Made by a program: the position numbers and the translations under genes. The notes beneath the pieces were generated by a model. The model made no database searches. It saw only the letters and a program-made list of their open reading frames with translations, and had not been told where the DNA came from. Of a stretch of 64,000 nucleotides of DNA, positions 13,174 through 64,000 are shown piece after piece. The first letter of the stretch is position 1. The number at the start of each line of letters is the position of its first letter. This DNA comes from Amoebidium appalachense (taxonomy: Eukaryota > Protista > Ichthyosporea), in NCBI GenBank assembly GCA_963693365.1, contig CAVNZM010000004.1, positions 10,010,468 through 10,074,467 on the forward strand, given 5' to 3'.

Positions 13174-13206
<33 letters not shown>

Positions 13207-13207
<1 letters not shown>

Positions 13208-13552: not shown

Positions 13553-13570
13553 TGCCCTTTTTCTTTGTGT

Positions 13571-13726
<156 letters not shown>

Positions 13727-14061: not shown

Positions 14062-14094
<33 letters not shown>

Positions 14095-14116
14095 GGAATG
14101 TAAAGTTGTTGTATAA

Positions 14117-14275
14117 GTGGGTGTGTATAAATATATCAAATGAGAGACAAAAAGACACCAGTTGGTAGGTATAAATCTGGACGTGGATGTGGATAGTGGG
14201 TGTGTATAAATATCAAATGAGAGGCAAAAAGACACCAGTTGGCAAGTATAAATCTGGACGTGGATGTGGATAAAT
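14117..14275. repeat. Two ~79-bp tandem units within a GTATAAATG-rich degenerate minisatellite (about 13900-14680; paralog about 43950-44710)
   Basis: GTGGGTGTGTATAAATA...CTGGACGTGGATGTGGATA starts at 14117 and 14196. Confidence 0.85.
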
Positions 14276-17200: not shown

Positions 17201-17914
17201 GTCATTTTTTGGTATAAAGCTGATAGACCCACACAGGAATCCAACTAAGCGCGGGGCATGGCTTCTGTGCTTCTGTGATGAGCCATGCTTATCATTGCAC
17301 AGTAAAGCTAGCTTTAAGATGTCTAGTGTGTATGAACACATCAGGACATCTTGGCACCCTGGCACCCGGAATGGATAACGAGGGGGTAGAAGAGAGGAGT
17401 AGAACGGGCAGAAATCAAATCAACTGCCGCCGAGCTGCAGCGGCGAGACCCTAAGACGGCATCACCAGGGCCACTTGGGAAGGCTTCTGCGTCTGCATGG
17501 CATTTAAGTGCGTAGTCAACTTGAGAGAAAGGTCGTTCCAGCCTTATGTATTGATGTGGTCGTCAGCAAGGGTGAAGTGTCGATAGTGTAGGTCATTCGA
17601 TAGAGCAGCTTACGGCTCCGACTAAAAATTCAAAACAAACGGTGTCCCTTGCTTCACTCAAATAAACGGCTAGCTATTGCCACCTGGGCCCTGCAAGCGC
17701 TTTCACTGACCTTCACTCATATCCACTTTGCATGTCTTACAACTGGACTTGTACATCATCAACCTATGCCACAATCTCATAAACAACCTTCAAAAAATCA
17801 GTTTCCTAACAGCGAACAAATACATCTAAAACGAGTTTGCTGCATGCCCAGGTTCAAAGACGCCGGAAGTAACTCAACCATAACAACTTCTTACGAGGAC
17901 CTCTGACCAAGCAT

Positions 17915-18367
17915 CTACTGCCCGGCCTTGGGATGGGGCTGGAAAGGGTAGTCTGCAGACAGGCCGGTCTTCACCAGAACATCCCACGTAAACGCCTTGA
18001 AGGCTTCCACCTCCCTCTGGTGCTTCTGCTCCTGTATCTCCAGCTTGTGCTCAAACAACTCCCTCTGGGCAGCCATTTCCTTTTCCTTGCTACGCAGCTC
18101 AACCTCGAAGACCGCCTGAGTATTGCTGATCTTTTCCTTTAGAGCTACCTCCTTGACCTCGAAGACCGCTTGAGTCTTGCTGATCTTGACCTCGAAGACC
18201 GCTTGAGTCTTGCTGATCTTTTCCTCCAGAACTGCAGTGCGCTGACGGTTTGCCTCAACGTAATGCAACGTAGCCCCGAACGTCCCAAACAGGGCCACCG
18301 CTGCGGTAATATTTGTTGCATTGTCGGTGAAGGCCTGAAAAAACCGTTGCGCCCAGTGGGTTGTCAT
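17915..18367 (-). CDS. Hypothetical 150-aa protein: N-terminal hydrophobic helix followed by a coiled coil with KIS(K/N)TQAVFEV repeats
   Basis: ATG-initiated ORF outside microsatellite sequence; ITAAVALFGTFGATLHYV hydrophobic segment; three 11-aa repeats. No family recognised. Confidence 0.5.
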   Translation of the reverse strand: MTTHWAQRFFQAFTDNATNITAAVALFGTFGATLHYVEANRQRTAVLEEKISKTQAVFEVKISKTQAVFEVKEVALKEKISNTQAVFEVELRSKEKEMAAQRELFEHKLEIQEQKHQREVEAFKAFTWDVLVKTGLSADYPFQPHPKAGQ

Positions 18368-19334
18368 TTTTCTCTGACGACTTCTTGGTAGACCAGAGCA
18401 AGGCCTCCTTCCTGCAAATGAAAATGGGCGAGCGATTGGGCAAACTGATGATCATGTTCGCAGACAAGGGTCGACGGGTCGCTTTTCGGGCCAGCACTCC
18501 AGATGTTCGCATGGAAAAGCATGGAAACCCAGTCCGAAGTGGGTTTTAAAACTTTAAGGTGAAATCATATATTTTAAAAAGTAAAATATCATGCTATCGT
18601 ATGCATTTATTACGGATATTATGTAATAAATATCATGCTATGTCTTTATATGTGTGCATGGAAAATGAAAGATTTTGGTGCTTTGTCAAAGCGCAGGCCC
18701 TATTTTTATGGTGGTGTGTCTTTCGACACGCACATCAGGAGCAGGGAATAAAGGTATTTTGAAAAACCTTGTTGACCTGACAATGTGTGCCCGTGTTCCC
18801 CCCCCCCCCCCCCCCCCCCCCCCCCACTGCCCGCACGGAATGGGTCGAAACCCGGGTATACGTACTCAGTGGATGACTTGGGCCCACCTGAGGCCTGAGG
18901 GATGTGTGTTTGTTTATGAAGAATACTCATTGTGTGGTTTGCCCTCTGTCTTTCTTTGTCCGTTAGGAATATGTACTTCTTCATCGTATGCAAACACATT
19001 CTACCCCCCCCCTCCTCTCCCCACACACCAAGAAAAAGAAACTTACGCATGCATACGGCTCGGGTTCGGCATGCATGCATGATAGCATTGATAGGCCGAG
19101 AGGCAGCTCCGGATCGAGGATCCAATTATATATATATACCATTGCTATTTATGGCAGAAACAATTTATATGTTCTGTTACAGTTGAAGGTTCACAGGTTT
19201 TGCGTTTACATGCTTACATTCATGATAAATAATTTGCCATTTATATCCTGACTCGTTGGCCCCGATAATTATACGCAACGTTAAGATTTTTAAAAAAAAG
19301 CCCAACACTGTTCGTGTTGCCCCCCCCCCCCCCC

Positions 19335-19368
<34 letters not shown>

Positions 19369-20731
19369 GGGGGCCCCTCCCTCTCTAGAGCTCCCACCCC
19401 ACCTCCCTACAAACAGGCAGTGTTCCCGTGCACACACAAACAAGTCAGTCCTGTTATGAGACGAAAATTAAAAGAGCGGCACAAGATTTAACGTGCATTC
19501 CGACATTCAAAGAGCATGGGCATTCGCATACATCTGCTGTGTGTGTGTGCACGCGCATGCACACGCGTGTGTGTAGAGGGGTCTTCGCGTATGTCCGTTT
19601 GAACAAGACAAGAGTGTTTGACTCTACAATGGCACGTTTATCTACATCGCTCCCACTATACGTGGAAACCACTTTGCTGACAAACCAACAAACACAAAAA
19701 AGTGAAACAGCCCATCCACCAAAAAAGAGCAAATCCGTCCTTGATGCCTTTCCATGAGCCAGCCAAACTTCCATCCATGTCCTCCCCCCCCCCCCCCCCA
19801 AAGTGTGTAAACCCCCCCCCCCCCAAACACCCTCCAGCGCCAAAAAATAAAACCAAAAATAAAAATAAAAAATATAAAAAATAAAAAATAAAAAGCCCTA
19901 GACCTCATTCAACAGGGCAGGCATTGCATCTCTCAACCCCCGTCTAGACACATAAAATGCCACGTCATTTACCTCAGAATCGCTGTAGTCCGATTGGTCG
20001 CTGACACTGACCAATGGTGGGGGTCCGTCATCCTCGCTGCACCCATCCCCCCGCCTGGCCTGCCCCGTACCCCTCCGTGTTCCCACCCCCATCCCGCCGC
20101 CCGTATGGGCCCCTCCCCCTCCGCGTATAGTACTCGTCATCAGACAAATCTGTATCGGATGCAGTTACCAAATCGGGAAGGTCATCTTCTATCCCTAGCA
20201 ACTGCCCAACCAATCCCCTCTGAGGCATCAAAACGGGCGGCCGGCCCAACCCCACCTGCACCCCATGCCGAAAATACAACCGGAGGGGTTCATGATGCAA
20301 GGTTACCGGCCTTAGGGGGTTTACTGGCTGGAGCAGCCGTGGCGGGGGGTCTCTATTAACTTCCACTCGAACTTCAGGTCTCGCTGGGTGTGGGGCAAGG
20401 CCCCAAGGCGGGAGTCTCAGCGGGTCGTCTATTCGTCCCTGGGGCATTATCAATACTCGAAAAAAACCCTCTGCCGTCTCCCCTCCTCTCCCTCCCGGTT
20501 GGCCCCCTGCTGGGCAGGCCGGGGGGGTTCTTGCAACCACGGTGCCTCATCCTCGCTATCATCTTCAGACCCCTCCTCCTCATGTTCATCTTCGTAGTCG
20601 TAAAAGTCGTCGTCTGAAATTTCGACCTCGAGCGGGGGCAGGTCCCATACGCCATTTGCAGGGAAACGTCCAAATTCGTGCTCCTCCAATGGACCCCAAA
20701 TGCTCTCGGGCCCACCGAACCTCTGCCGGTG

Positions 20732-22336
20732 TGTAAACATCTGTACACGCCGTACATGTTTACTATTACGAATATACTGTACATATCATAGTGATCACGT
20801 AGATATTGTGTACATATGATCAGATCAATATCACACGCGACAGCCGCGGGCTGCGGCTCACGACTGAGCCGCGGCGCCGGCAATATGCAGTGGCCGTGCA
20901 GTCAGTATGAACCAATAGAATTCGAGAACCGCTAGGATAGGAATGCAAGTCTCATCCACTACGGAGGCGACATCTATAGCTAAACGAACGGAACCAATAA
21001 GGAAATCAGACCCAGTTGCATAAACCTAAACGGGCTTAAGTATTGACCAATCATTTGCCACAAAGTTATCCTTTTAGTTAGCTTCATGTTATTGGTGCAC
21101 TGTGTGCACATAAAGACGACCGCTCTCTTCTGACTGGTCAGAAGTCACGAAGGCATCAATGCCACCCATCCAGATGATCCGGAACCTGGGGGCTATATAA
21201 ACAAGCCGTCCCAGTACGGGGGATCACTCTGAACGAGCACATTAAATAGTAACCTGGCCGCGTGTGTGTTAAATTATATAAGTATTTTGGGATGAAAGTA
21301 GAGACACAGTGGTGCAGTGTGAAAACACCACAGACACATACAACAACAAAACACGGAACGATCGGAGCAGTGTACACAACAGACATCAATGTTTAGACAC
21401 GACTGAACTCAATTTATTTTGATCGCTAATAAATACCTGAAATTCCCTTAAGTTAAATCCATACATGATTTCCGACCAGTCGGAAATCAGATCTATGTCT
21501 AAAATAACCAATCACAATTAACTGATTATTTCCCGGATAGATCCGGAGACACAGGAACGCACACCATAGGTCACAGCTATAAGAAAGAAAAGAGGTGAAG
21601 AGTAACGAGGAAAGAGGTGATGTTTCTAACCTATCAACGGCTACAAAGACTCAGACATTTTCTGACTAAGTCCACTGATTGGATATAGTACGGCAACACA
21701 CAAAACAAAAGTGGTTGACTAAGCTATGAATCATACCTGACAAGCTAAAGTGTAACCTAAGTGTTTTTCTACCAATCAAAACATAACGAGTAATATAAAT
21801 CTACTCAACGTATATTAGTGAGAGAGAAATATAATTATGTGAAAGGAAACAAGAGAAGAAAGAAAGAGAAAAGAAAGAAGAAGAAAGAGGAAAAAGAAAA
21901 GAAAGCAGGACAGAAAACACGAACAGCAAAACACAGTTATAACCGAAGATATTCATGTACACATAACATGTACACGTTTCTCCCTCACTGGGTAGACTCG
22001 TGTACCTATAATCAGTTGCTGTAATCGATATCTAAACACACGAATATAGCCGACACAACACGATTACAAGTACTCAAATACACTGGAGATCGATGTCATA
22101 ATTTACGTACAAGGAGCACATCTTTTTCATTAAGTAAATGAATGAAAACATAACACGAACTGAGAAGATCTTACAATATGTAAATACTACGTATTATAAC
22201 ATCCCCACTTAAGACTTTGAAGTTTGTGTTATCATATCCCCACTGAACTAGTGAAATCTCCCCACTTGAGAACAGAAACGGAAAAAAAAAAATTAAAGTT
22301 TGGACTTTTCCCGGGGGGGGGGGGGGGGGGGGGGAA

Positions 22337-22415
<79 letters not shown>

Positions 22416-24653
22416 AGGGGGGGGGGGGGGAGGGAAGGGGGGGGAAGGAACCGGGGCAAAAACAACGAATATATAGAACGTGTATAGTCGGGGTTTGATT
22501 AACTGGGTGTTAAACCAGTGAAAGATAGAGTAGAGTCATGGTACAGGTCAAACCTTATATATAAACCCTAAGTGGGCATACCCACAAAGGCAATACATAT
22601 GAAATAATGATGGTGGTAAAGTAGGTAGTAATCATTCCACTAACTGGTACTAACTGGGTCGGGGGCAGGGGGTTTCGGAAACGCGGGCAGGCAGCACGGT
22701 AGGCTGGCTAGAAACGTGGATGGGAACGGCCGGACCTGGCAGCACGTGTCTTGCTGGCCGGGGTCGGGTGGTAATGGGGGGGAAACAGCTGCAGGGGTAG
22801 CTGTTGCCCGTGCAGAGCTGGTGGTAGTTGAGATCTCGACGAGGTTGGCCACGTGATGGGGGGAAACTGCTGCCGGAATGCAGGGCAGATCAATGGAATG
22901 TGAGGGGGCCATTGACAGTGACGGCACGGTAAGGGGAGACATGGCCGAAAACAGGGTTGGAAATCCTGGAAGGAAGCAGGTTGGACACGGTAAACGGTTC
23001 TGGAGGGACTCAGGGTCGGGACTCCTAGGGAGGAGGGAAGCACAAAGGGCTTGGACGGGGTGGAACACGGTAGACTGGAAAGAAGTACCGAATTTGGATA
23101 CTTCAGATGGACTTGATGGATGAAGGTCAAGTCGGATCGAGACGGGGTGTCAAATTATCGTCGATTGGAACGCAGACGGGGTGTGAAATTATATTCGAAT
23201 GCGGGTTGACGGGGTTCGAAATCGGATGGAATGGGATTTCGATGCAGGATCCTCAGGCCTGGGTAGACAGGGCGGCGCGGTTGAGACCACGTCGGTGAAG
23301 TGTCAAGGAACTTGGAGCGCGATTGCAGAACCAAGGGTGGAGGACGGTTTGGCGTGACGGAACGAAACCAGGACGGAGCTGGAAGGAGTGCAAGCTGGAA
23401 TTTGAACTTGCGAGGATGTCACGGGTGTCAAGGCGTGACAAAAGCTCTTGTCAAGATGAGTCAGATCTTGTCAAGAGGAGTCACGTGGGACCGGTTACGG
23501 ACGGACGCCGGGGATGAATGTACACAGCCTCAGCACCAAGATGCATGAGGAGCTGACCACAGCTATGATGTGTACCAGGAATTTAACGATCGCTAGGTCT
23601 AGGTGTGTGTAGGGAGCGTGCATCTGGGCCCATAACCTGTTAAATTATATAAGTATTTTGGGATGAAAGTAGAGACACAGTGGTGCAGTGTGAAAACACC
23701 ACAGACACATACAACAACAAAACACGGAACGATCGGAGCAGTGTACACAACAGACATCAATGTTTAGACACGACTGAACTCAATTTATTTTGATCGCTAA
23801 TAAATACCTGAAATTCCCTTAAGTTAAATCCATACATGATTTCCGACCAGTCGGAAATCAGATCTATGTCTAAAATAACCAATCACAATTAACTGATTAT
23901 TTCCCGGATAGATCCGGAGACACAGGAACGCACACCATAGGTCACAGCTATAAGAAAGAAAAAGAGGTGAAGAGTAACGAGGAAAGAGGTGATGTTTCTA
24001 ACCTATCAACGGCTACAAAGACTCAGACATTTTCTGACTAAGTCCACTGATTGGATATAGTACGGCAACACACAAAACAAAAGTGGTTGACTAAGCTATG
24101 AATCATACCTGACAAGCTAAAGTGTAACCTAAGTGTTTTTCTACCAATCAAAACATAACGAGTAATATAAATCTACTCAACGTATATTAGTGAGAGAGAA
24201 ATATAATTATGTGAAAGGAAACAAGGGAAGAAAGAAAGAGAAAAGAAAGAAGAAGAAAGAGGAAAAAGAAAAGAAAGCAGGACAGAAAACACGAACAGCA
24301 AAACACAGTTATAACCGAAGATATTCATGTACACATAACATGTACACGTTTCTCCCTCACTGGGTAGACTCGTGTACCTATAATCAGTTGCTGTAATCGA
24401 TATCTAAACACACGAATATAGCCGACACAACACGATTACAAGTACTCAAATACACTGGAGATCGATGTCATAATTTACGTACAAAGAGCACATCTTTTTC
24501 ATTAAGTAAATGAATGAAAACATAACACGAACTGAGAAGATCTTACAATATGTAAATACTACGTATTATAACAGTGTGCCTTACTACCCGTTCTCTGTCT
24601 TTATTCTGATTCAGTTGTTCTCTGCCTTATCCCAACTAGTTCAACTGTTTACA
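20732..24653. mobile_element. Solo LTR (~610 bp) split by a nested element
   Basis: Ends TGTAAACA...TGTTTACA; 5-bp TSD CGGTG (20727-20731, 24654-24658); empty site GCCGGTGGCAG at about 50767-50777; TATATAAA near 21194. Confidence 0.88.
21267..24573 (-). mobile_element. Non-autonomous Copia-type LTR element (LARD/TRIM-like) nested in the solo LTR
   Basis: LTRs at 21267-22201 and 23638-24573 (about 3 differences seen), TSD GTGTG, canonical PBS GGTTATGGGCCCAG (complement at 23624-23637), PPT complement TCCCCACT at 22202. The 1.4-kb interior has no recognisable gag or pol motifs. Confidence 0.93.
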
Positions 24654-24681
24654 CGGTGGCAGATGTTCGGTGGCATTGCGC

Positions 24682-24718
<37 letters not shown>

Positions 24719-24789
24719 AGGGGGGTTTTGAATGCGTCATAAAGTACAAGTACACATGAACAACGGATAACACGATGCAGAATGCCAAC

Positions 24790-27390
<2,601 letters not shown>

Positions 27391-27956
27391 AGCAGCAATC
27401 CAAGAACACAGGGGAGGGGGGAGAGGGGGGGGGGGGGGAGGGGGGAGGTAACAATGTGGTACACGTTACACGTTACCTTTAGCCAACATTTCGATATAAA
27501 TACATGCAAAGAAACAGCAAGAGCAAATGTATATAAGAGGCTGCATAACTGGTTTCTTCACGACCATAGAAGCTCGGGAGCAGGGGCAGAGAAAGGGCAG
27601 GTGTGGGGTGTGGAGGGCAGGGGGGGGGGGGGGGGGACTCGTCCAAGGTAATTTCAAGTAATAAAAAAAACCTATCAACAGCAACATCTCCCTTCAACAG
27701 GGGCACAAAACCTCCACATTGTGCACAACCACTAACAGCAGGACAAGCACATCCATACACCCACCTTCCACGTAGGTGCCGTACTCTGCATGACCAAGCA
27801 GCAGCAAGTAGATGTGGTGGATGACATAGGTTAGCAAAACGTCCAGTATCCCCTCCCCCCCCCCCCCCCCCCCTCCCCCCCCCCCCCCCCGCCACCGCCG
27901 CCCTGGCCGCCACCCCCCCGCCTCCCGTCTCTTTTTCTACCAACACACACACACAC

Positions 27957-28003
<47 letters not shown>

Positions 28004-29259
28004 TCTCGATTCACTCTTTGTTCCCTCTTACTCCCTTACGGCAAACGCATTGCGCCACCCCGGCTACCATCGATCAACAACATCCCCTACCTCCTCCCCC
28101 CCCCCCCCCCCCCCCCCCCCCCCCATCCCCTCCCCCCTCCCCCCAACCCCTTCCCAACCCCCCCACTCCCCCCGGGGGACTCTCCGTCACCTTGTACATG
28201 ACACAAGTTCTACCAACTTAGCAAGTCGAACAACCCAGGAAGGCTTATATGCTAGAAAATTGGTCGAGTAAAAGGGAAATCCAAGTAATTCTTACTCTTC
28301 AGACTTTTGCTTATGTTGCCTGTTCCTGTTCTGGAGTGGGACAACAGGTTACAGGCGGGCTCAACTTTCTATTGAGCTTTCTAAGGCGGTCGCGTCGACG
28401 TCAGCAAACGCAAACATTACAACAACCAATCGGCAATCTAAATAACCTTATATAGGTATTTAGAACGTCACAGCACCCTTTCGACAATACTATTGGCTTA
28501 AAGTCACTACTAAGTGTTACCGATAGCTGGGAAATTGCAGGGACCAATAGGATACCCCTGAAACTTTGCAAAAACGTTATTCTATTGGTTGAGATTGGTT
28601 TGTTACTTTGCTATGCCCGAAAGGCGCTTTCTACGAAGGGGTTTACTATTAGGGTCCTGTTAGACTTAAAAAAAATTCTCGACTACTCTTGGATCACAAT
28701 CACGCCCTCTCTTTAGGAAGTTAGCGGAAATATACTCATACAAAAAATACATGCATATAATACAAATATATAAGTAAAAGAAAAAAAAAAAAAAAAAGAA
28801 AAAGATAAAACAAAAGTGAAAGAAAAAATCCTGGGAGTTCAATAAGTTTTTTGTCGTATATAAGGTGTGATTTCAACATCATTGATGGCCCTTTTTGAGT
28901 GACCGTTAGATATCGATCGTTTGGTCCCCCATCAGTTTGGAATTTACGCTGATCTGATTGGTCAAGACAGTATCGATCGGATGTGTTTTTTCTTTTGACT
29001 CGGGTTTATAGATCCGTTGATGAATACAACGTGCAGCCCCAGGCTACATAACCACCAATTAAGGGATACGGGATCGGCGATTTTGAATGGTCCCCGATTT
29101 CTTTCTGGCGCCGCCTTTTTTCCCCCTGATTACGTAACGCGTTGCTACGCACCCACGCCGTACAACGATTTTTGTGTTCGCACGTTAACGCAGAGGGCGC
29201 ACAACCCGAAAGAATTTTTTTCATGAAAAGAAACTACTTTGAATACATGCACTTTTACC

Positions 29260-29966
29260 ATGGGTGTGCAGGGCTTGCTCCCAGCACTCGGCATTAGTGC
29301 CGAAAAAGCCACAGATGTTACTGCAGAGTTGCAACGTGGGGTAGTTGCTTTTGACGGGATGGTGCAGGTCCACAAGTCCTTTTCAGTTTTCGCTGACACA
29401 GTAGCCAAACAGCAAATAGATGACAAAAAAGTCACAGACGACACATATGCAGCTATTGCAAATCACTTTATGTCCAAAGTTAATACGTATAGGCTAGCAG
29501 GGGTCCAGCCACACTATGTGTTTGATGGGCGCAGATTGAAAGAGGGAAAACTAGTTGATAACGACCGTGCAGAAAAGGTGGTCAAAGCCCGCCAAGAAAT
29601 AGCCACAAAAAGAGAGAAACAGGAGGAGGTAACTAAAAACAAATGGAGAAGCGCTGCAGAGTTAGATAACAGAGTTTTACATGCAATCATCCTTAGACTG
29701 AAAGATGAGAATGTCGATTACACAGTAGCTCCATACGAAGCAGACCCCCAGCTTGCCTATATGGCACGTACCGGTTTGGCACACACTGTTGTCACTGAGG
29801 ATGCCGACCTTCTTCTGTATAACATCCCGCGGGTTGTATACAAACTGCGCATTGCGGATGCGGCGGTCATCCCTGGGACCGCTAATGCGGTGCGCATTCC
29901 CAAACTGTACGGAGTGATTGTAACCCCCGCCGATGTTTTTACCAGAAGCACAAAGTACAACATAAT

Positions 29967-29997
<31 letters not shown>

Positions 29998-30015
29998 GGG
30001 GGGGGGGGTCAGTAA
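29260..30015 (+). CDS. Exo1-like XPG/FEN1-family 5' nuclease (XPG-N and XPG-I regions); C-terminus truncated or spliced
   Basis: MGVQGLL, VVAFDG, YVFDG, APYEADPQLAY and VTEDADLL motifs. Recognisable homology ends near 29960, where (GT)n and a G run begin. No H3TH GCDY motif seen. Confidence 0.88.
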
Positions 30016-30189
30016 TCTTCTGACCGATCTAGTGAACCTATAATGAATGAATGAAGACCGTGTGTCAAATCTGAGAGCAATGTACCAGACCCTGGTGCCT
30101 GCATATGTTTCCTACCCCCCCACCCCCCCCCCCCCCCACCCCCTCCCCCCGGTCCCTCCTCCCCCCTTGGTGTTTGCATACGTGCCTAC

Positions 30190-30228
<39 letters not shown>

Positions 30229-30361
30229 ACACGTGTGTGTGTGTGGGGGGGGGGGGGGGGTGCATGCGTGCGTGTGTGCACGTCATGCGTGGGTGCGTGC
30301 GTGCGTGCGTGCGTGCGTGTGTGCGTGCTTCCGTGTGTGCGTGGTTGTGTGTGTTTGTGAA

Positions 30362-30392
<31 letters not shown>

Positions 30393-30519
30393 GAACGACT
30401 CAAGGTTGTACTTGGCACACAAATACATAATAATTTCAATTATTATTATTATTTTCCTATACAGGAAAAGTGGAGCCCTACTGGCCGAATACATACATGC
30501 AAGCATTCATTCATATTTT

Positions 30520-30609
<90 letters not shown>

Positions 30610-30658
30610 CAGAGAAGGGGGCTTTAGGGAGAGGCACTGGCAATCGAAAACGAAAATT

Positions 30659-32575
30659 CTACACCATGCTTTTGGTGTGCCCGGGCCCCACCATATCCTT
30701 ATATAGTGGCTCTTGCATGTTACACAAGAAAGCCACAGCCTTAGCTACCATCCAATGGGTGCCTACCATCGACATCTGCACCTGATTGCTAAACAGCCGA
30801 TAATTTTTCATGCGCCCAAAAGCCCTCTCCACATGCACGCGCACACTAGACAGTCTTTGGCTATATATGGTGTCTTCAGCGTTTAGCTGCCCATGCTCAA
30901 CAAACGACGGTAATAGCAAGGAAGCACCCTTCTCCATGATTAGCCCGTGCACTCTAAACCCTTTATCAGCTGCTATTTCATCCCCCTCTTCTATCTGATC
31001 TACAAATTCACGCTTGCATACACCTGTGAGATCCGGGTCTTTGAACCCCCCCACATGTGCATCGGACACCGGTCTGAGTTTCATATCCGTTGTGATGCCC
31101 CCGAAGTACTTGAGAGTATAATTGCTTTTGTACTCTGAGTAGAAACATCGTTTCAGAAGGAGGTTTGTCGGCACCTGTACAAACACCTCGGTGCAATCAA
31201 TGATCCACCGTACATCGTCCCATTGCCCAGTGTAGCAACCGGCTTTAAACTTCGAAAGTTGCTCTCTGGTGGGGGCTTTTTCGTATAGAAAAACCTGTGC
31301 TAACGCCAGTGCACCAAGAAAATGGCGGAATATACGCGAAAGATTCGGTTCTGACACATCCACCAGCCGACTCAATAGTTGGAAGGATGTGCCGTGGCGG
31401 AGGCGAAAAAGTGTAAAAAGACATCCATCATGCCATATTATTTCCTTTCCTGTTTTGGTTTTAAAATCATTCATGTTTATAGTTGATTGGCCAATAAAAG
31501 CAACAATCCCCAGCACTCCCATGAGAGCTTCAAAACTATCCAACCCCGTGTATGTTTTCACCACATCATCTCTAGCCTTCCCTTCCTCTTCCGCCACTAT
31601 GTCCTCCATGCATATTCTTTTCTGGTTTTGTAGTAATTCCTCCCTCGCTTGATCAAGCGCTTGTTCGAGCTCCTTCTTCTCCAATCTTTGTTTCTTCTCA
31701 TTTTCCTCCAATTGCTTCGTAGCTATCTCAAGTTCGATTTGCATTTTCTCCGCCTGCTCCTTATAGAAAGCTCTTGAACGTTCCAGGACATTCACATAAT
31801 CCTCTACATCCATCCCTTCCTCACCTGCCTTCGACTCTAGATAGTCAAATGTCCTTTCACGCACATGTTCCCTCCTTCTTTTCGCTCGTTCACTGTCCTC
31901 TGCTTCTTCACTGCTCGTCTCCCCCCGCTCCCTCGCTCGTTTCCGTGTTTGCTCAATATCTGAGGCATCCATTCCTACAGCTTGCATATGACTATTGGCC
32001 CTTTCCTCCCTCAATAGCTGTACCTTCTCTCTGTACATCGGGTCTAGTTCCATTCGGATGGGACATGCATCCTTTGTTAATTTCAGTTTTCCATTCTTAG
32101 CAGTAATATCATCATCGGTGAAATGTGCCTCGCATACAACCAGTTGCTTAAGGATAGCCAGTGGCCAGGGGACTTCCACCTTCGGTTGCCCCCGTTTCCT
32201 CTTTGGTTGTGGTTCTTGTGCCGACTGCTCAGCTGGCACAGCCGAGTCATTGGCATTTTCGGATTGTGTGTCAGCTGTGTGTGTCTCAGTAGTGGTTGTG
32301 TCTGTATTTACGTCTGTCCCATCCGAGGCCTTTGGCCTTGTGTCTGTGTGTGTGTCTGGGTCGGGGGGTGCTTGCTTTGTGTGTTCTGCTATTTGTTTCC
32401 GCTCATACTTTGTTTGCTCCTGCCTGCCTATAGCATTTAACCAAGCATGCCTCCTAGCCAATACATTTGGTTTGTATCCATATGGAACAGTAAAAAGCTT
32501 TATCTTCCTGGTAGGATCTTTGGGAGAGACTGTTTCTTCGTCATTTTTGCAGTAGTTAGCCGCGCAAGTTGGCAT
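30659..32575 (-). CDS. Transposase with THAP zinc finger, coiled coil, HTH and DDE_Tnp_4 (HARBI1/ISL2EU-like) domains
   Basis: MPTCAANYC...F..P...R..W...VCEAHF...ACP (THAP); YTGL; LFRLRHG...SRIF; IIDCTE; YSEYK..TLK; ADKGF; RVHVERAFGRMK. Intact 638-aa frame. Confidence 0.95.
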   Translation of the reverse strand: MPTCAANYCKNDEETVSPKDPTRKIKLFTVPYGYKPNVLARRHAWLNAIGRQEQTKYERKQIAEHTKQAPPDPDTHTDTRPKASDGTDVNTDTTTTETHTADTQSENANDSAVPAEQSAQEPQPKRKRGQPKVEVPWPLAILKQLVVCEAHFTDDDITAKNGKLKLTKDACPIRMELDPMYREKVQLLREERANSHMQAVGMDASDIEQTRKRARERGETSSEEAEDSERAKRRREHVRERTFDYLESKAGEEGMDVEDYVNVLERSRAFYKEQAEKMQIELEIATKQLEENEKKQRLEKKELEQALDQAREELLQNQKRICMEDIVAEEEGKARDDVVKTYTGLDSFEALMGVLGIVAFIGQSTINMNDFKTKTGKEIIWHDGCLFTLFRLRHGTSFQLLSRLVDVSEPNLSRIFRHFLGALALAQVFLYEKAPTREQLSKFKAGCYTGQWDDVRWIIDCTEVFVQVPTNLLLKRCFYSEYKSNYTLKYFGGITTDMKLRPVSDAHVGGFKDPDLTGVCKREFVDQIEEGDEIAADKGFRVHGLIMEKGASLLLPSFVEHGQLNAEDTIYSQRLSSVRVHVERAFGRMKNYRLFSNQVQMSMVGTHWMVAKAVAFLCNMQEPLYKDMVGPGHTKSMV

Positions 32576-34009
32576 TGTGAGTGCCTAACATATATAGTTA
32601 GAAAACAACCCGCCTTCATGAAAAATGTGCAGCGCAGTTTTGTCCGGACACGTGTGTGGCATGCCGTGTGTACATGGTATAGCTCGGCCACACGATCTTA
32701 GGTGCCCAATAGGCAGATCAAGCCCACTCAATCCAGATAGATATCGATCTGAGCGGCGCCAGAAAGTATTCGAGCCGCGCGATCCCGTATCCCTTAATAG
32801 AACTGAAAAAGCCAAAGCTACGAATTAATAATAATAAAGCGATAAGTGACAAAGGACACCAGCGGGCAAAACCTTAAGTGTACGTGTATGCGTGAAACTA
32901 GTTTGCTCCAACTAGTCATATGCATCGATGTTGACCAGACCACACTCCGCAAGAAGTGTCACATCATTACTGCTCCTTCCCAACAGGCCCCCCTCAAAAC
33001 CTACCGAGGCACAGCAAGCAAGTCAGCCTCTAAAAGAGCAATGCAGACCAAATCTGAGCTAAAAAACAATCCCAACGGGCCCGGCCAGTAGATAACCCGG
33101 AGAAACTGCATCTAGCTCTCTGATATGGTGGCCTACTTGTGGCAGGACACACAGAAAAACACAATTACAGAATGCATGCAAGCAAACCCGGTCATTGCCA
33201 TACGGCTGGAGGCTAAGGACTGGCAGTCACTTGGAAAGCTCCCCGACGACCAAGAAGCCGCCCCTCCACTCACGCAGCGCAGAAGTAGCTAAAGAAGTTG
33301 CAGCAGCCCACCGATAGGTCGCGTAGAAGCGTAGACAGCGTGTAGAAGTTACCATAGGTTGCAGTGGACCACCAGGCGTTGAAGAAACCACTTCTCAAGC
33401 GAGAAACTCCGCGAAAGGGAGATGCCCCCACACTCTCACAGCAGTAGGAATATGTACACCAGGCCACACCACACAGACGCTGCAGTCACGTTCCCCTGGG
33501 CCTGATGTATTTTGGAAGGGATCTAAATCGATTTGATTGGCTGTTCCAACGTTTACCTCTGCTGTCGACGTCTCTTTATGGTTATCTTGTTTCCTTATCA
33601 GGCTATTTGCTAATGCTGTCCCCAAGATCTAGGGGGACCATCCTGTTTCGTGCGTGCGCTCAAGGCTTTTCATTCCGGCTCCTTTTCGCTCTCGCCCCCA
33701 CACTTGAACTGACTTCGAATGTTCGCCACACTCGCACATGCCTTTGTGCGAAACACACGAGCACACCAAAGCAGAACATCTTTTGCTTCTTATCTGAAAG
33801 CGGACGCATCTTGGACTGGCGTTAGCAAGTACTTTGGGCTGCATGTTAGGTAGGCGAAATGAGTGCTCATGATATGCTGATGAAAGCAAAACGGGTGTGG
33901 TGGAGTGTAAGAAGGGGGGAGGGAGCGAGTAAGCGTGGGAGGGAGTCTTAGGGAGGGGCCTATGGGAGTGGACGGGAGGGTCGAGGGTAGGCTAAGGACG
34001 AGGGGCCCA

Positions 34010-40304: not shown

Positions 40305-40470
40305 GAAAACTGACCAATGGGAATTCGAATCCTGAATTCAATGGGAAATTGACCAATGGAAATAGTCGCCCATTGGGAAGAGGCGAAAAAGCAAATTTGC
40401 AGGAACACTGACCAATCAGAACGCGTAAGCCGAAATCTGTACATTCCATCCCGAAACTGACCAATAGGAC
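40305..40470 (+). promoter_or_regulatory. Cluster of TGACCAAT (CCAAT/NF-Y-type) boxes upstream of the PolB-like ORF
   Basis: TGACCAAT at about 40311, 40350, 40409 and 40458; the last two are also in copy A (~514, ~563). Confidence 0.55.
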
Positions 40471-40757
40471 CGCGAATGGCTCATTGTTTTTGGTAAACAG
40501 AGGCGGCCGGCCGGCGGCGGCCAGACACGCGCACAGACTTGTTGTTTTTGCGTACTGCTTCGTGAGATTTGGAGAGGTTTTTGCTTTTGAGATTTCACTG
40601 GGCTTTGAGATTTAATAGACACAGGCACAGAGACGTTATTTTGCATGCTGTTTTTTATTGAGGCATTGCTCTGGCACAGCCAGGCTAGCAACCATCGATT
40701 AGATTGATACTTGAGATTTATAAGATTACAGCCTGAGATCTAAGGTTACCATTCAAG

Positions 40758-42300
40758 ATGTTCAGCGAGAGCCAGGAAGAGTTTGAAGATGATCTGTTGC
40801 GGGCACTGGATGCCGACCCGCAGCAGGTCCTGCAGGCCCACCCCTTCCTGCAGGCCATGTTGGCCCCACCACCCCCACCCCCACCCCCTCCCCGGCCAGC
40901 CCCCCGCCCCCGCCCCCATCAATCACCCCGATGACCCCCAGATCATTGCCATGCCGGCCGAGGGCAACTGGCGACTGCGTTCCCGTGTAGATGACATGCA
41001 GGCACGGGGACTGGGTGTGCGTGGCCACACCCTCGAGTACCAACCCCTGCGCACCCTTGACGTGACTGAGTTCCCCCAGTTTTTTGCAGCCATGCTGTTC
41101 GATGCCATGGCCCGTGCAGATGTGCAGGCGGGGGACATGCTGATTGTGCGTATCATCAGCCTGCACGTGCAGGCCAACGGTGTGGACAACCAGGTGGGGG
41201 ATGATGGCAACCCCAACGCCGACGTGACCAACCGTCGTGTGTTTACTGCCGGCCCCATGGAGGTGTTCAATGGTGATGTCAACGCCGTGGTGCTCAAGCT
41301 GATGGAGAACATACGGCAACGCACCCAGAGTGCAGCCGAGACCTTCATGGACGGCAGATCCACCGTGCATCTGACGGTGGCCCGACCCAAGGACATGGTG
41401 AGGAGGGGGGCCTGCGGGTCCCTGTCCACCACCACGGGGGTGAATGCACGGTGGCTGCAGGATCTGGTGGAGGCCAAGGCCGTGGTGGATGTGACCGCCC
41501 TCGTGCAGGCTGCCTGCAGCACCGACGACCCACAGGTGACCGGGGAGAGGGCCCTCGACCGCCAGCAGCTGCACGGCTTTGCCTACGGCCCCAACTGTGC
41601 CCAGCTGTGCCTGTTGTACAGCATGGTGATGTGGGTGAAGAAGGCAGCCAATGGCAACGAGCAGGCCAGCCTGCCCACCGAGCACACACGCAAGGTGCTG
41701 GCCAAGGGGGGCAACCTCATGGATCGCAAGGACCACCACGTGCTGTGCCACCTGCTGACCCCGGAGGAGGTGTTGGGGGCCGGCAACACGACCCTGGGGG
41801 TGTCGAGATCTTCCGGCTGTGGGGTGTGCAACCTGCTACTCCCCCCCACAGATCCAAGGAGCCACCACCAAGACCGTTACCTGCGGAGATTGGTGAGGGC
41901 AACCCGAGTGCTGTGGACCAAGTACGACCTGCCTGTGCCTGCAGAGGACGGCCTGACGGTGGATGAGCTGGGGGCAGCCGTGGATGCCCTCAACACAGCC
42001 ATTGCCGAGCAGCCTGAGTCAGTCACCCGCCTGCGGCTGGTGGTGGTGGACATGGACAGCGGGGCCAAAGTGCTACGCCGGTACGGGGACCTGAGCATGG
42101 CCCTGCCCCCCTCCAAGCTGTGCACCATGTACTTGGCCCACTCCCAGAAGCTGGGCCACTTCACGGCCATCACCTCCAGTGTCAGCATGACCATCGAGCG
42201 CCTACGACACAGCAACCACACGGGGGAGGCACGACGGAACCTCAGCACCTGCTACTACCCTCTGTCCTCCATCCCACCCCCAACCCCACCCAGCTCTGAA
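40758..42300 (+). pseudogene. Second copy of the PolB N-terminus-like ORF; +1 frameshift in a C run near 40885, no internal stop
   Basis: ATG 40758 corresponds to 863; the offset changes from 39895 to 39896 across the C run; TGG at 41632. The frameshift could be a homopolymer sequencing error. Confidence 0.55.
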
Positions 42301-42508
42301 GGAACAACAGTTGTAAACAGACTATGTACGCTGTCAGACTATCAGGGGATTAGGGGATTATGTTCTCTTTCTGCAACGATTTTCCACAGACCCCCCCCCC
42401 ACCCCCTCCCCCTCCCCCCCCGGCCCCCCCACTCCCCTTCCTAAAATGCACACAGGCACACATGCAAGTAAGCGCACGCACGCACACCCACAGCCGCACA
42501 CACACGCG

Positions 42509-42542
<34 letters not shown>

Positions 42543-42669
42543 TCCGGTTGTATCCCTCGCTTATAAAAATGTGATTCGTGTTGTTCTGATAGAGTTTTGC
42601 CGGCAGGTGAAACAGCGGGCACAAGCATTTTCTGGAACAGCTGTGGGAGCTAGCAGGTGCGTGTGCGCG

Positions 42670-42727
<58 letters not shown>

Positions 42728-42764
42728 TGAGCGAGTGTGTGTGTGTGAGTGTGTGAGTGTGCGT

Positions 42765-42803
<39 letters not shown>

Positions 42804-43284
42804 TGTGGGTGTGTGTGTGGGTGTGTGTGAGTGTGTGTGGGTATGGGTGTGTGTGTGTACGTGGGTGGGTGGGTGGGTGGGTGGGTGGGGGTGGGTGTGT
42901 GTGTTGGGGGGGGGGGGGGGGGGGGGGGGAGGGTATGGGTGGGTGGGTGGGTGGGTGGGTGGGTGGGGGGAGGGTGTGTGTGTGTGTGTGTGTATGTGGT
43001 GTGCGAAAAAAAAGGTGAGGGGGAGGGGAGTAAGGGGGTAGGATAGCGATTTCTGACTCATGCTGTGAAAACAACACCACCAGGCCCCAGTATATGGCAC
43101 ATAGGGGTTGGCAGCCATTCAGTGTTCATACAGGCACTGCTTGCCCAGGTTGGGCATGTGGGCTACAGGCCTATGAATGCTGAGATGGTCCCTGTGGTCT
43201 TAAGGTGTGTGGGTGATTTGTGGGGTTTTGGATTTTTTTTTTTTTTTTTTTTTTTTTGTTTTGTTTTGTTTTGTGTGTGTGTGT

Positions 43285-43397: not shown

Positions 43398-43450
<53 letters not shown>

Positions 43451-43629
43451 GCCCCTTGAAATTAGGTTCGTGTTGTATTGTTTTCGGTGTGGTGTTGTGG
43501 GATACGGGCCTATGAACTCAGAGATGGTCCCTGTGGTATTTAGGTACGTGGGTGGTGGTGTGTGGTTATTTAGGTTTTGGTGTTGGATTTCTCGTGGTTT
43601 TTTTTTTTTTTTTTTTTTTTTCCCTTTTT

Positions 43630-43762
<133 letters not shown>

Positions 43763-46700
43763 TTATGGGTTGGATTATTTTTTTTATTTTTTTTTATTTT
43801 TTTTATTTTTGGCTTTTTTTGAATTTGGCATCGTGTGGTACTGTTTATATTGGTCGGGCTTGTGGGATACGGGCCTATGAAGACGGATATGGTCCCTATG
43901 GTGTTAAGGCCCATGGTGTTTTTGGGTTCTGGATTTCTGTGTTTAATTGGGTGGGTATAAATGTGTATAGTAGTAGGTGTTTATAAGTATGTAAGTGGGT
44001 TTGTATAGATGTGTAAGTGTGTGTGTCTGTGTGGGGGGGGGATGTGTGTATGTGTGGGGGGAAGGGGGGTGGGGGTGGAGGGGGGTTGATGTTTAAATGG
44101 CGGGGGGGGGGGGGGGGGGGGGGAGGAATGTAAAGTTGTTGTATAAGTGGGTGTGTATAAATATATCAAATGAGAGACAAAAAGACACCAGTTGGTAAGT
44201 ATAAATCTGGACGTGGATGTGGATAGTGGGTGTGTATAAATATATCAAATGAGAGGCAAAAAGACACCAGTTGGTAAGTATAAATCTGGACGTGGATGTG
44301 GATAAATGCATGAGTGATTTGTGTAAGTATACACTCATGTGGGAACAATGTCTAAGTGGGTGTGTACAAATGTATGAATGGGTGCTTCCATATGTGTCAG
44401 GTAGAAATGTAAAAATGGGGGTATGTATAAATGTTTAAGTGGATTGGTGTATGTCTATGTGGTGTGAATAAATATGTAATGGATGTGTATGAATAACGGA
44501 TGTGTAGAAGTCCATTTGTGGGTGGGTATATGTGCAAAATGGATGCTTATAAATTTGTAGCTTGGTGCGTGTAAATTCATAAGGGGGTGGGTATAAATGT
44601 ATAGTGGATATGTATAAAAATGTATAAGTGGGTGCGTATAAATGTCTAAGTGGCCACGTTTTCATGCATGAGCGTGTTCGTATAAATGTTTGGCTGGTAT
44701 AAATGTTAATTATGTAGTGGATGCTGACCGTGTTACTACAGGGCACAGGTAGGAGAGGAAAAGGCAGGGAGCACAAATCTGCACATCTATGTCGCACTGG
44801 TGTGAAGCCCCCCTCCCTCCCCCCCCCCCTCCCCCCCCCCCCTCTTTCCTTCTCTTCCTCTTATAGCTTTTCTCTTGGTCCACTGCCCTGCCTTCTTCCC
44901 CTCCCCGCGCTTTCGCCCCTCATATGTTATTCCCCCCCACCCCTTCCCATGGACAGGGGAAGGGGCGGTCTGAGGTCAGGAGGGAGAGAGAGAGTGTGTG
45001 TGTGTGAGGGCAAGTGAGACTGAGAGTGTGAAACCCGAACATGCATGCGGAGACGAGAGAGGGGGGAAGGAGTCGGGGAGGTGGGAGAGAGAGGGGAGGG
45101 GGGGGGGAGGGAAGGGGACATCTAGGGGCGCCAAAAGCAAACAGAGGCACATACCACAAACGGATGCACGTACACACGAATAGCAATTTCATCTCCCTGA
45201 TCGCTCCTTCCCCCCCCTTCCCCCTCCCCGCCCCCTCTCTCATCCCCTCCACCAACCACCACCATCACTCCCAACATGTACACATACACACGCATACAAT
45301 TACTGGCACACCTTTGGGTGCGTGCGCAGACACACGTGCACACACGCATACACGAAAACACGTTTTATTGTTATTATTATTTTACTTATTTTATTAGTTC
45401 TGATTGGCCACTTTACTTACACGGTCGTTTTAACTTCTAACAGGCCATCGTGATTGGTGGGTTTGGCGTGGGTGTGCTGGGTCTGCTCGTGTGGAGGAAG
45501 ATGGGCAGGCGCAAGAGACAGGAACAGACACAAAGCAACATGTGGCTTCCGGTGGAGGACGAGGAGGATGAAAACATGTAGGGACGGTGTTTTTGGTTTA
45601 GTTTGCCGTATCTCCGTGTATGAAATAATGCAGGGAACATCCAATACGTGGTGTTTTTGGTTGAGTTTTCCGAATCTCCTGGATTTATCGGCGTTTAGGA
45701 GAGTGAAACATGTAGGGAGTATCAAAAAAAAACTGTGTTTTTGGTTTGGTTTTACGAGTTTCCCATGTCAGAGGGGGGGGGAAACAATTCGATAATAGAG
45801 ATACCCGGGAGTTTTGGGGTTCTTTTTCTGAGTTTTCCCCAACTCGAGGCACAAACACAGGCTAACGCGTGGTTGCCTGTACATGTGGAGGACGAGGAGG
45901 AGGATGAAAACATGTAGGGAACATCGTGGTGACGTCATGCGTGACAAATGTTTCCGGCCCGGCTGTGCTGACTTGGCTGACGTAAGCTTAATCAAGACAG
46001 CAGAGTCGTAGAAGAGCAAAATAGATGACGAGGACGTTTTTTGACCTATACCCTTTAACCCTATTTTCCCTTATGCTAGCCATTGAAGTTTTTCAGTAGC
46101 TTGTGGAGCTTAGACAGACGAGCGAAGCGCTTTACAGCCCAAGGGGACCCATTCGCCTGCGAGCTGTGACGTCATACTTGGCGTGGAAGAGTCCAGTGGT
46201 GTGTGTCTGGAAGTCTATGGTCGAATATTTCATGGTTCCTTTGATGATCAGAGTACCGTTACTCCACACATGCCTAGTCGAGCATGAGCTCTTTGTCGTA
46301 AGTAGCACTTGCGGCAACCCAAAGTAACTAATTTTGCACTTCTTTTCGGGTTCGACAAGAGTTTTTTCCGGACATGGTGTACAAAACAAAATAATCAGTA
46401 CTGAAGCTATGGCAGCTCGTGATCACATAGATGCTGTTTGGCCTAGTCTATTTCGCCCGTTGACTCTTAATGAGTCCTGAAATAACAGGGCTGGCTGACA
46501 AAGAGCTTGTCGAGACCTTGATCGAGACAGTTGTTAACGAGCATGCTGTTCAAGTTTGTCCTGATGACTAAGTCAAGCTGAAGCTTCGATTCCATGAAAG
46601 CGATGCGGATAGTACACACACACATGCACAAACACTTACCCCTGCCATTCACTTGCTAACAAACATCAACCATACTCTTGCTGTCCCCTCTCTCTTGTTC

Positions 46701-62792: not shown

Positions 62793-64000
62793 CAAGTTCT
62801 ACCAACTTAGCAAGTCAAACAACCCAGGAAGGCTTATATGCTAGAAAATTGGTCGAGTAAAAGGGAAATCCAAGTAATTCTTACTCTTCAGACTTTTGCT
62901 TATGTTGCCTGTTCCTGTTCTGGAGTGGGACAACAGGTTACAGGCGGGCTCAACTTTCTATTGAGCTTTCTAAGGCGGTCGCGTCGACGTCAGCAAACGC
63001 AAACATTACAACAACCAATCGGCAATCTAAATAACCTTATATAGGTATTTAGAACGTCACAGCACCTTTTTGACAATACTAATGGCTAAAAGTCACTACC
63101 AAGTGTTACCGATAGCTGGGAAATTGCAGGGACCAATAGGATACCCCTGAAACTTTGCAAAAACGTTATTCTATTGGTTTAGATTGGTTTGTTACTTTGC
63201 TATGCCCGAAAGGCGCTTGCTACGAAGGGGTTTACTATTAGGGTCCTGTTAGACTTAAAAAAAATTCTCGACTACTCTTGGATCGCAATCACGCCCTCTC
63301 TTTAGGAAGTTAGCGGAAATATACTCATACAAAAAATACATGCATATAATACAAATATATAAGTAAAAGAAAAAAGAAAAAAAAAAGAAAAAGATAAAAC
63401 AAAAGTGAAAGAAAAAATCCTGGGAGTTCAATAAGTTTTTTGTCGTATATAAGGTGTGATTTCAACATCATTGATGGCCCTTTTTGAGTGACCGTTAGAT
63501 ATCGATCGTTTGGTCCCCCATCAGTTTGGAATTTACGCTGATCTGATTGGTCAAGACAGTATCGATCGGATGTGTTTTTTCTTTTTACTCGGGTTTATTG
63601 ATCCGTTGATGAAGGCAACGTGCAGCCACAGGCTACATAACCACCAATAGAACTGAAAAAGCCAAAGCTACGATTTAATAATAATAAAGCGATAAGTGAC
63701 AAAGGACACCAGCGGGCAAAAATTTTTTTTTAAACCTTAAGTGTACGTGTATGCGTGAAACTAGTTTGCTCCAACTAGTCATATGCATCGATGTTGACCA
63801 GACCACACTCCGCAAGAAGTGTCACATTATTACTGCTCCTTCCCGAACAGGCCCCCCTCAAAACCTACCGAGGCACAGCAAGCAAGTCAGCCTCTAAAAG
63901 AGCAATGCAGACCAAATCTGAGCTAAAAAACAATCCCAACGGGCCCGGCCCCTAGATAACCCGGAGAAACTGCATCTAGCTCTCTGATATGGTGGCCTAC
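62793..64000. mobile_element. Second copy of the unclassified repeat, lacking the DNA transposon; runs off the window
   Basis: Matches 28204-29059 joined to 32799-33135 with scattered substitutions; truncates the mucin-like gene. Confidence 0.65.

Follow-up and report, generated by a model that had tools for sequence, protein, structure and literature searches.

Why should a DNA transposon, of a kind whose second gene usually codes for a YqaJ-PHD exonuclease, carry an EXO1-type nuclease in that place? The question is raised by positions 29060-32796 of the window, as we call the whole 64-kb stretch of Amoebidium DNA that was analysed, and according to our analysis this segment is almost certainly a single ISL2EU-type transposon (Table 1). 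Its ends are perfect 17-bp inverted repeats (TAAGGGATACGGGATCG), as a sequence-only reading of the locus had claimed. Perfect 17-bp inverted repeats outside low-complexity DNA occur at five places in the whole window, the other four being three within one large inverted repeat (6850-13004) and one local hairpin near 39995. A subterminal 14-bp motif common to both ends is likely a transposase binding site.

The element interrupts one copy of a repeat (28204-33136), whose uninterrupted paralogue lies at 62793-64000. The flanks match this paralogue at 98% and 95%, and the AT that is single there stands on both sides of the element in the filled copy, which bears out the claim that an empty site is present and that the element moved as one unit. 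The joined, element-free form of the interrupted repeat is also found in public contigs, where AT is present at element junctions with other flanks as well; the 2-bp AT duplication of ISL2EU is seen both in the comparison of filled and empty sites and at those junctions. The preferred ISL2EU target is A-AT-T, whereas the site here is A-AT-A, with no T after the duplication; at the few other junctions seen, T precedes AT, or G or A follows it. A Pangu-type, 3-bp AAT duplication was rejected: it gives unequal ends at this site, and the left junction of contig X12 contradicts it. Terminal inverted repeats of ISL2EU measure 6-259 bp and usually start with GG, while those of our element, of 17 bp, begin with TAAGGG; this rule seems to be loose, since the YqaJ element L080 begins with AGAGG.

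The transposase gene runs through 638 codons without a stop and all three of its domains were scored in a profile search (THAP, E 7e-8; HTH_Tnp_4, 2e-7; DDE_Tnp_4, 5e-30), so the intact THAP-HTH-DDE transposase read from the sequence stands. The residues D460-K483-D513-D537-P556-R579-E583, with gaps of 22, 29, 23, 18, 22 and 3, fit the PHIS pattern D(19-29)K(29)D(18-40)D(11-19)P(18-28)R(3)E, as given in the available part of PMC4122938. By tblastn the protein matches the YqaJ-partnered transposases of L080 and L081 (E 2e-16 and 3e-13, with segments 27-50% identical), and it had no match in plasmid and phage collections or in PDB. An Atlas look-alike bears the name 'Putative is4eu-1 dr'. For a place in the ISL2EU clade, as against Harbinger, Spy, Pangu and IS5, we take this name and the tblastn matches as leads only. 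The start codons of the transposase (32575) and of the nuclease (29260) lie 221 and 200 bases inside the right and left ends, respectively, exactly as had been read. An 11-bp motif is common to both upstream regions, and the ATG within its nuclease-side copy opens a short out-of-frame ORF that overlaps the nuclease start.

Table 1. Features of the transposon and of its target site (positions in the window)
Feature	Position	Strand	Basis or remark
Left target-site duplication, AT	29058..29059	.	single AT at empty site 63647-63648
Left terminal inverted repeat, 17 bp	29060..29076	+	sequence comparison of ends
Subterminal 14-bp motif, left	29101..29114	+	common to both ends
11-bp motif, nuclease upstream region	29217..29227	+	also upstream of transposase start
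EXO1-type nuclease, codons 1-234, XPG-N + XPG-I (D32, D89, R103, E160, D162, D181, D183)	29260..29961	+	profiles, alignment, model
Low-complexity segment (poly-G, poly-C, GT repeats, poly-A)	29962..30620	.	replaces H3TH-coding 3' part of nuclease
Transposase, 638 aa, split THAP finger + coiled-coil linker + HTH_Tnp_4 + DDE_Tnp_4 (D460, D537, E583)	30659..32575	-	domain profiles, motif positions
Segment missing in deletion derivative, 1080 nt, transposase residues about 223-583	30828..31907	.	joint in X12 and X15
11-bp motif, transposase upstream region	32615..32625	-	also in nuclease upstream region
Subterminal 14-bp motif, right	32753..32766	-	common to both ends
Right terminal inverted repeat, 17 bp	32780..32796	-	sequence comparison of ends
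Right target-site duplication, AT	32797..32798	.	filled vs empty site
Empty target site, single AT	63647..63648	.	paralogous repeat copy 62793-64000

The second ORF, convergent to the transposase, had been recognised by its XPG-N and XPG-I motifs, and the profiles agree (XPG_N 3e-5, XPG_I 3e-13); the same search found no YqaJ in it and readily detected YqaJ in L080 and L081. Within the FEN1/XPG family the nuclease belongs to the EXO1 branch. In PDB it finds human EXO1 at 5e-21 and its best FEN1 at 3e-9, its predicted structure (pLDDT 77) has human EXO1 for all top Foldseek matches (TM about 0.76), and in a tree of EXO1, FEN1, XPG and four viral FEN-like rows, with GEN1 left out, it falls inside the EXO1 clade with support 100/99, the viral proteins lying outside. 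All six acidic metal ligands (D32, D89, E160, D162, D181, D183) and the equivalent of R92 are kept in the window copy, and the basic residue that we take to match EXO1 K85 is displaced by one (G96/K97). Identity to the EXO1s returned by our searches, which did not include the host's own, is about 26-34%, with a ceiling of about 34% outside Amoebidium, so that the feared case of a near-identical piece of EXO1 does not hold for any EXO1 returned. Fold, catalytic residues and the H3TH motif, the latter seen in another copy, are common to the transposon nuclease and eukaryotic EXO1 (human, PDB 3qea/5v0b), while the transposon protein, of about 360 aa, is intronless, lies within a transposon and lacks the long regulatory tail of EXO1.

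In the window copy the homology ends at codon 234 (29961), the frame continuing into junk up to a stop at 30013-30015. The H3TH part is absent from the whole 64-kb window, and a hidden H3TH exon in 29962-30620 was rejected, as residues 69-196 of the EukProt Amoebidium protein P0002 had no tblastn match there even at word size 2. Contigs of other copies diverge from the window sequence at this low-complexity segment. P0002 is 97% identical over the 68 shared residues and then carries the missing H3TH motif with its aspartate kept, and because this near-identical protein continues into H3TH, the loss is a property of the window copy; the earlier caveat that no H3TH was visible is right for that copy, and another one has it. 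Such a loss would weaken or abolish the nuclease of the window copy, and the full protein is likely supplied by other copies. A complete intact ORF is implied by the gap-free contig X14 only, every version read directly being damaged: the EukProt one is frameshifted (P0001/P0002), that of metagenome contig L069 has a stop and a frameshift, and the window nuclease is broken off.

Public contigs contain further insertion sites of the element, with near-identical copies, and the nuclease is present in contigs of other copies too, contrary to the possibility that those copies might lack it. A deletion derivative has its joint in contigs X12 and X15, with matching loose ends in X2 and a 2-nt microhomology. 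The same tail-to-tail pair of a transposase and an EXO1-type nuclease is found in the unrelated contig L069, a transposase being the neighbour in 1/48 metagenome nuclease loci. In L080 and L081, YqaJ-PHD stands in the nuclease slot and likewise converges with the transposase gene, and L080 also has AT-flanked terminal inverted repeats; an EXO1-family nuclease thus occupies the YqaJ slot of an ISL2EU-type element, as had been suggested. In the papers searched we found no report of an ISL2EU-type transposase paired with an EXO1/XPG nuclease, and the available sections of PMC5499597 and PMC11244446 contain nothing on it.

From canonical ISL2EU elements this one differs in its second ORF, an EXO1-type nuclease of the XPG fold in the slot of YqaJ-PHD. 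With the ISL2EU group of the PHIS superfamily, as described in the available sections of PMC4122938, PMC4482050 and PMC9179366, it shares the AT duplication, the THAP/HTH/DDE transposase with PHIS spacing, and two ORFs inside short terminal inverted repeats; the convergent layout is that of the YqaJ loci L080 and L081. The 25 families of Han et al. 2015 are all in animals, as far as the available part of PMC4482050 goes, whereas our host is a protist, placed in Amoebidium by proteins 98-100% identical. PIF/Harbinger, NuwaI/II, Pangu and Spy have DDE_Tnp_4 and the PHIS motif in common with it but differ in their TWA, CWG, TNA or ANT duplication, or none, and in a Myb/SANT, uncharacterised or absent second ORF (PMC4482050, same part). 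Neither the 3-bp TWA duplication and Myb/SANT ORF of PIF/Harbinger nor the 3-bp ANT duplication of Pangu is found here, and THAP and HTH are present, unlike in Pangu, which has no domain besides DDE. An XPG-family nuclease is also carried by Academ elements, likewise DDE transposons, but there it forms part of a single large protein whose transposase is from an unrelated superfamily, whereas our nuclease belongs to the EXO1 branch and has a convergent gene to itself. Kolobok lineages D, E, P and H, according to the available sections of PMC9587614, swap accessory nucleases, including a lambda-type exonuclease, within one DDE superfamily, although both that superfamily and its TTAA duplication are unlike ours. 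The term XPG does not occur in the main text of that paper.

As to the origin of the nuclease, AU tests rejected neither an old transposon lineage nor capture of a holozoan EXO1. A displacement of one 5'-3' exonuclease by the other, as the earlier reading suggested, may have occurred, in either direction and once or several times. Holding six candidate transposon nucleases together gives a likelihood 10.6 units above the free tree, to be read with the facts that these six rows were picked after a quick tree had been seen, that the bootstrap of the careful tree had not settled and that both constrained trees scored better than the free one. The best named matches outside Amoebidium, Branchiostoma 'exonuclease 1-like' proteins, group with the EXO1s of animals in the quick tree and lie apart, unplaced, in the careful one. 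A GTDB scan with nuclease patterns gave 34 matches, with 0 confirmed. Viral origin or carriage was rejected: the transposase has no match in viral contigs, most nuclease patterns gave no match, none of the 30 FEN-like viral loci found with a further pattern has a transposase nearby, and the four used in the tree fall outside EXO1.

These data bear on whether the nuclease is a passenger, captured once from the host or another EXO1, decaying and with no role in transposition, which we find improbable. Damage in all three versions read, the fact that grouping with animal EXO1 was not rejected (p-AU 0.58) and the separation of the window and L069 nucleases in the free tree would fit such a history, but a passenger would hardly be expected to be intronless, to start symmetrically to the transposase behind a common 11-bp motif, to recur tail-to-tail in unrelated DNA, or to gain in likelihood when the six candidates are held together. 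The catalytic residues, moreover, are kept at about 30% identity to EXO1, which indicates long purifying selection. We regard the nuclease as quite probably an integral partner gene of the transposon.

Lambda-type exonuclease and EXO1 have unrelated folds and a common activity, 5'-to-3' resection leaving 3' tails. As a structurally unrelated enzyme stands in the same slot, the question narrows to this common property, 5'-to-3' end processing. We tentatively propose, giving it not quite an even chance, that the nuclease resects the donor break left by excision, both its activity and its substrate being predicted. By analogy with the family, the transposase would bind the ends, excise the element and insert it with a 2-nt staggered cut; the nuclease would degrade the 5' strands at the break, and the resected break would favour repair by copying the sister chromatid (gap repair), restoring the donor copy. 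EXO1 identity, the kept catalytic residues, the slot shared with YqaJ, the L069 pair and the deletion derivative speak for resection. In P and Ac elements, aborted gap repair typically leaves deletions with short microhomology, although such derivatives arise also in transposons without a nuclease. Against resection count the damaged versions, the K85 shift, the 1/48 loci, the trees, which fit an old transposon lineage and a captured EXO1 alike, and the host, which likely has its own EXO1. Most Spy elements, moreover, have a single ORF and carry no nuclease (available sections of PMC4122938), so the superfamily does not need one.

The nuclease might instead belong to the chemistry of excision and integration: the transposase would nick and join 3' ends only, and the nuclease would take off the non-transferred 5' strand or flap, a task that falls to TnsA in Tn7 and to host nucleases in phage Mu. 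EXO1 is active on 5' flaps as well (flap DNA is named in PDB titles), and a 5' nuclease sits in the same slot of EXO1-type and YqaJ elements; lambda-type exonucleases, however, depend on a free double-stranded end and do not act as flap endonucleases, and, a weak point, none of six matches among long fused proteins has a transposase domain. The transposases of Harbinger and Spy, which are related, manage transposition with no nuclease encoded by the element (available sections of PMC4122938 and PMC9179366). We hold this explanation to be rather unlikely. Quite improbable is an integral nuclease acting outside transposition, which might, for example, destroy excised linear elements or rival mobile DNA, or disturb host DNA sensing or silencing: Kolobok lineages do carry varied nucleases, and the KolobokD exonuclease was proposed to degrade DNA intermediates (available part of PMC9587614), but nothing specific to our element supports it, and it leaves the same 5'-to-3' polarity of both slot alternatives unexplained.

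It is possible, if doubtful, that we see here an old pan-eukaryotic PHIS branch with its own EXO1 lineage, in which EXO1 and YqaJ would be independent solutions to one needed step, 5' DNA-end processing, and ISL2EU transposition would be an undescribed two-enzyme reaction. The available sections of the PHIS papers (PMC4122938, PMC4482050, PMC9179366) contain no treatment of what the YqaJ exonuclease does in ISL2EU. The present element has a small size and no introns, its near-identical copies and clean empty site mark it as recently mobile, and with it the pairing is found in a unicellular organism closely related to animals. A transposon of the ISL2EU kind may gain by trimming broken DNA ends itself, and in protist genomes some of the genes annotated as 'exonuclease 1' may belong to transposons.

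The defining features of ISL2EU transposons, as described in animals, are an AT duplication, a transposase with THAP, HTH and DDE domains, and a second ORF that encodes YqaJ (PMC4482050). Our element has the same duplication and the same transposase architecture, whereas its second ORF is not YqaJ, and for this reason we consider it an ISL2EU-type variant rather than a plain member, an assignment by features (duplication, domains). An XPG domain is also present in Academ. No published pairing of XPG with an ISL2EU or Harbinger transposase was found in our search of openly accessible article texts; swapping of accessory nucleases is known in Kolobok (PMC9587614).

Features of the element and of the surrounding window
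Feature	Coordinates	Strand	Description
TIR, left	29060-29076		17 bp, perfect inverted repeat
TIR, right	32780-32796		17 bp, perfect inverted repeat
Nuclease ORF	starts 29260	+	XPG_N, XPG_I
Transposase ORF	32575-30659	-	638 aa, uninterrupted; THAP, HTH_Tnp_4, DDE_Tnp_4
11-bp motif	29217-29227, 32615-32625		identical at both places
Large duplication	13355-28206 vs 43422-54457		near-identical
Large duplication	489-2915 vs 40384-42856		near-identical
1480-aa ORF	3946-8385	+	
Partial copy of that ORF	11469-13274	-	inverted

The sequence-only reading had claimed perfect 17-bp TIRs, an intact transposase and an ORF with XPG-N and XPG-I motifs, all of which were borne out. A 14-bp subterminal motif is common to both ends, and perfect 17-bp inverted repeats that are not low-complexity occur at five places within the window, the element's pair being one; a single large inverted repeat, together with a local hairpin, accounts for the other four. 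The flanks align to 62793-64000 with 98% and 95% identity, and since this copy has a single AT where the filled one has AT-element-AT, the 3737-base unit was mobilised whole, as the reading had proposed from the empty site, and its insertion duplicated 2 bp.

Part of the element is contained in 20 of the 24 listed public sequencing runs, and at least half of its words in 18; contigs from seven of these runs were compared with it, their depths being taken as hints only, and no contig among them spans the whole element. Other flanks, with AT retained in each, were seen at the left end (run X12) and the right end (X12, X15). A contig of X2 joins the flanks with 4 extra bases between two ATs (window 29061/32797), which resembles an excision footprint keeping a few terminal bases and may just as well represent a variant form of the high-copy host repeat. 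The element is inserted in this repeat (28204-29059, 32799-33136, 62793-64000), which has very high contig depth and may itself be a non-autonomous mobile element. Much of the window is made of the large duplications (93-97%), about 30-40 kb apart; the 1480-aa ORF and its inverted partial copy share 74% DNA identity over 1.8 kb and by eye are like LTR-retrotransposon polyproteins.

The nuclease homology in the window copy ends at codon 234 (29961), beyond which the DNA is of low complexity for about 660 bases. Two proteins from one Amoebidium parasiticum record in EukProt, presumably a transcriptome assembly from the naming convention, represent the same gene in two frames: P0001 (100% over 98 residues) and P0002 (97% over 68). 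P0002 extends beyond codon 234 and carries an H3TH motif, and this continuation is absent from the whole window; thus the caveat that no H3TH is visible was right for the window copy, while a near-identical gene has it. An X14 contig of 1382 bases tracks the nuclease over 29230-29956 with 2 substitutions and no gaps, differs from the window at T222P as P0002 does, and continues for 655 bases, a length similar to that of the part presumed replaced in the window copy; the X14 run has no cover at 30006-30107. An X1 contig ends at about 29961, as 5 bases remain after 29956, and this is the point where the window and P0002 diverge (contig letters at 29957-30017 were masked in the comparison). From these alignments we infer that other copies would hold a complete nuclease gene, about 360 codons long, and that the 3' part of the window copy was probably replaced or misassembled. 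At 29760, X12 and X15 carry one inserted base, in agreement with the P0001/P0002 frameshift, so that damaged nuclease copies exist as well. Contigs of both runs hold a derivative without 30828-31907, thus without the transposase HTH and DDE core, and in that of X15 codon 117 is a stop as well.

Among proteins of solved structure, human EXO1 is the closest to the nuclease in sequence (5e-21; best FEN1 3e-9), and a structure model built on an alignment of 10 sequences, EXO1 relatives among them (pLDDT 77), matches human EXO1 first (TM about 0.76), FEN1 second and XPG third. D32, D89, E160, D162, D181, D183 and R103 (equivalent to R92) are retained, and a lysine lies one position off K85 of EXO1; the pieces of this nuclease that were examined show no SWIM finger. 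No close relative other than the Amoebidium pair came up among 5.8 billion and 1.8 billion proteins; 3157 proteins match at E 0.001 or better, and ordinary EXO1 makes up most of the top 150.

A quick tree with 94 rows, which left out about half of the host matches, put the nuclease outside the host EXO1 group with weak support, near metagenome proteins P0010, P0017 and P0177. The careful tree (52 rows, bootstrap not settled) places it within EXO1 (100/99) as sister to P0177 (95/95), with the metagenome locus L069 grouping with P0010. Neither holding the window nuclease together with P0177, L069, P0010, L032 and P0017, a group named after seeing a tree (likelihood +10.6, p-AU 0.67), nor joining it to four animal EXO1 (+5.0, p-AU 0.58) was rejected. 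Its highest identity in this set is 34%, and a very recent capture seems unlikely because host EXO1 is so conserved across the sequences compared, Amoebidium's own EXO1 not being among them; ten candidates looked up included no ichthyosporean EXO1. In Branchiostoma there are several additional 'exonuclease 1-like' genes (P0014, P0160, P0003, P0005, P0016), of which one is fused to HIRAN and another, as a gene model, to BEN; they may stem from a separate capture of EXO1 by a mobile element.

In the transposase, D460, K483, D513, D537, P556, R579 and E583 match the spacing of the PHIS superfamily (PMC4122938). The THAP finger is split, its Cys pair being separated from its C-x2-H pair by a low-complexity insertion of ~90 residues (about 60-140). 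The two start codons are preceded, at distances of 43 and 50 bases, by the 11-bp motif, whose ATG starts a short out-of-frame ORF overlapping each of them; the motif is possibly a shared promoter or a translational brake.

Scanning metagenomes for a motif common to the divergent nucleases, we obtained 104 pattern matches, which led to 48 confirmed loci, most of which, among the matches listed, resemble ordinary host EXO1. One of the 48, L069, has a transposase neighbour: its XPG_N gene (E 2e-7), broken by one stop and one frameshift and with an H3TH-like stretch by eye, is met convergently, less than 100 bases off across an AT-rich spacer, by a DDE_Tnp_4 transposase C-terminus (E 5e-8). No transposase was found at the 26 metagenome loci having at least 1500 bases downstream, nor at 30 viral FEN-like control loci; the divergent L031 and L032 have only about 120 bases of downstream sequence. 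At L042 (1421-3290) a divergent EXO1-like gene and a weak Myb/SANT-like ORF (E 0.005) converge, transposase being absent within the 3.3-kb contig.

Searching GTDB with the transposase yielded four loci (L079-L082), L079 being too short and L082 a weak match. L080 and L081 are canonical elements, the former with AT-flanked TIRs, and as their YqaJ-PHD also converges on the transposase, EXO1 fills the slot held by YqaJ. The observation made in the sequence-only reading stands, and its nuclease-swap interpretation is supported in part: the slot agrees, and the pairing recurs at one metagenome locus, L069. L080 (4019-8244) and L081 (4200-7140) are filed under one bacterial and one archaeal MAG, bins likely to contain animal DNA because these are eukaryote-type ISL2EU with YqaJ-PHD and apparent introns.

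Judging from its family, the transposase would bind the ends, excise the element and integrate it at an AT through a cut staggered by 2 nt. The YqaJ/lambda exonuclease and EXO1 have no common fold and both resect 5' strands, and on this ground we tentatively favour a role in which the nuclease would resect the donor-site break and steer repair to sister-chromatid copying, so that the element is restored. The microhomology deletion derivative is compatible with such resection and does not require it. The nuclease might instead take off the non-transferred 5' strand during transposition itself, a less likely reading and one weakened by the mobility of Spy and Harbinger, which have no enzyme of this kind (PMC4122938 and PMC9179366). 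That the nuclease is a passenger appears improbable, and that it has some other role slightly more so.

We may suggest, with considerable reservation, that the element belongs to a single old branch bearing EXO1, for which the processing of 5' ends would be a required second step.
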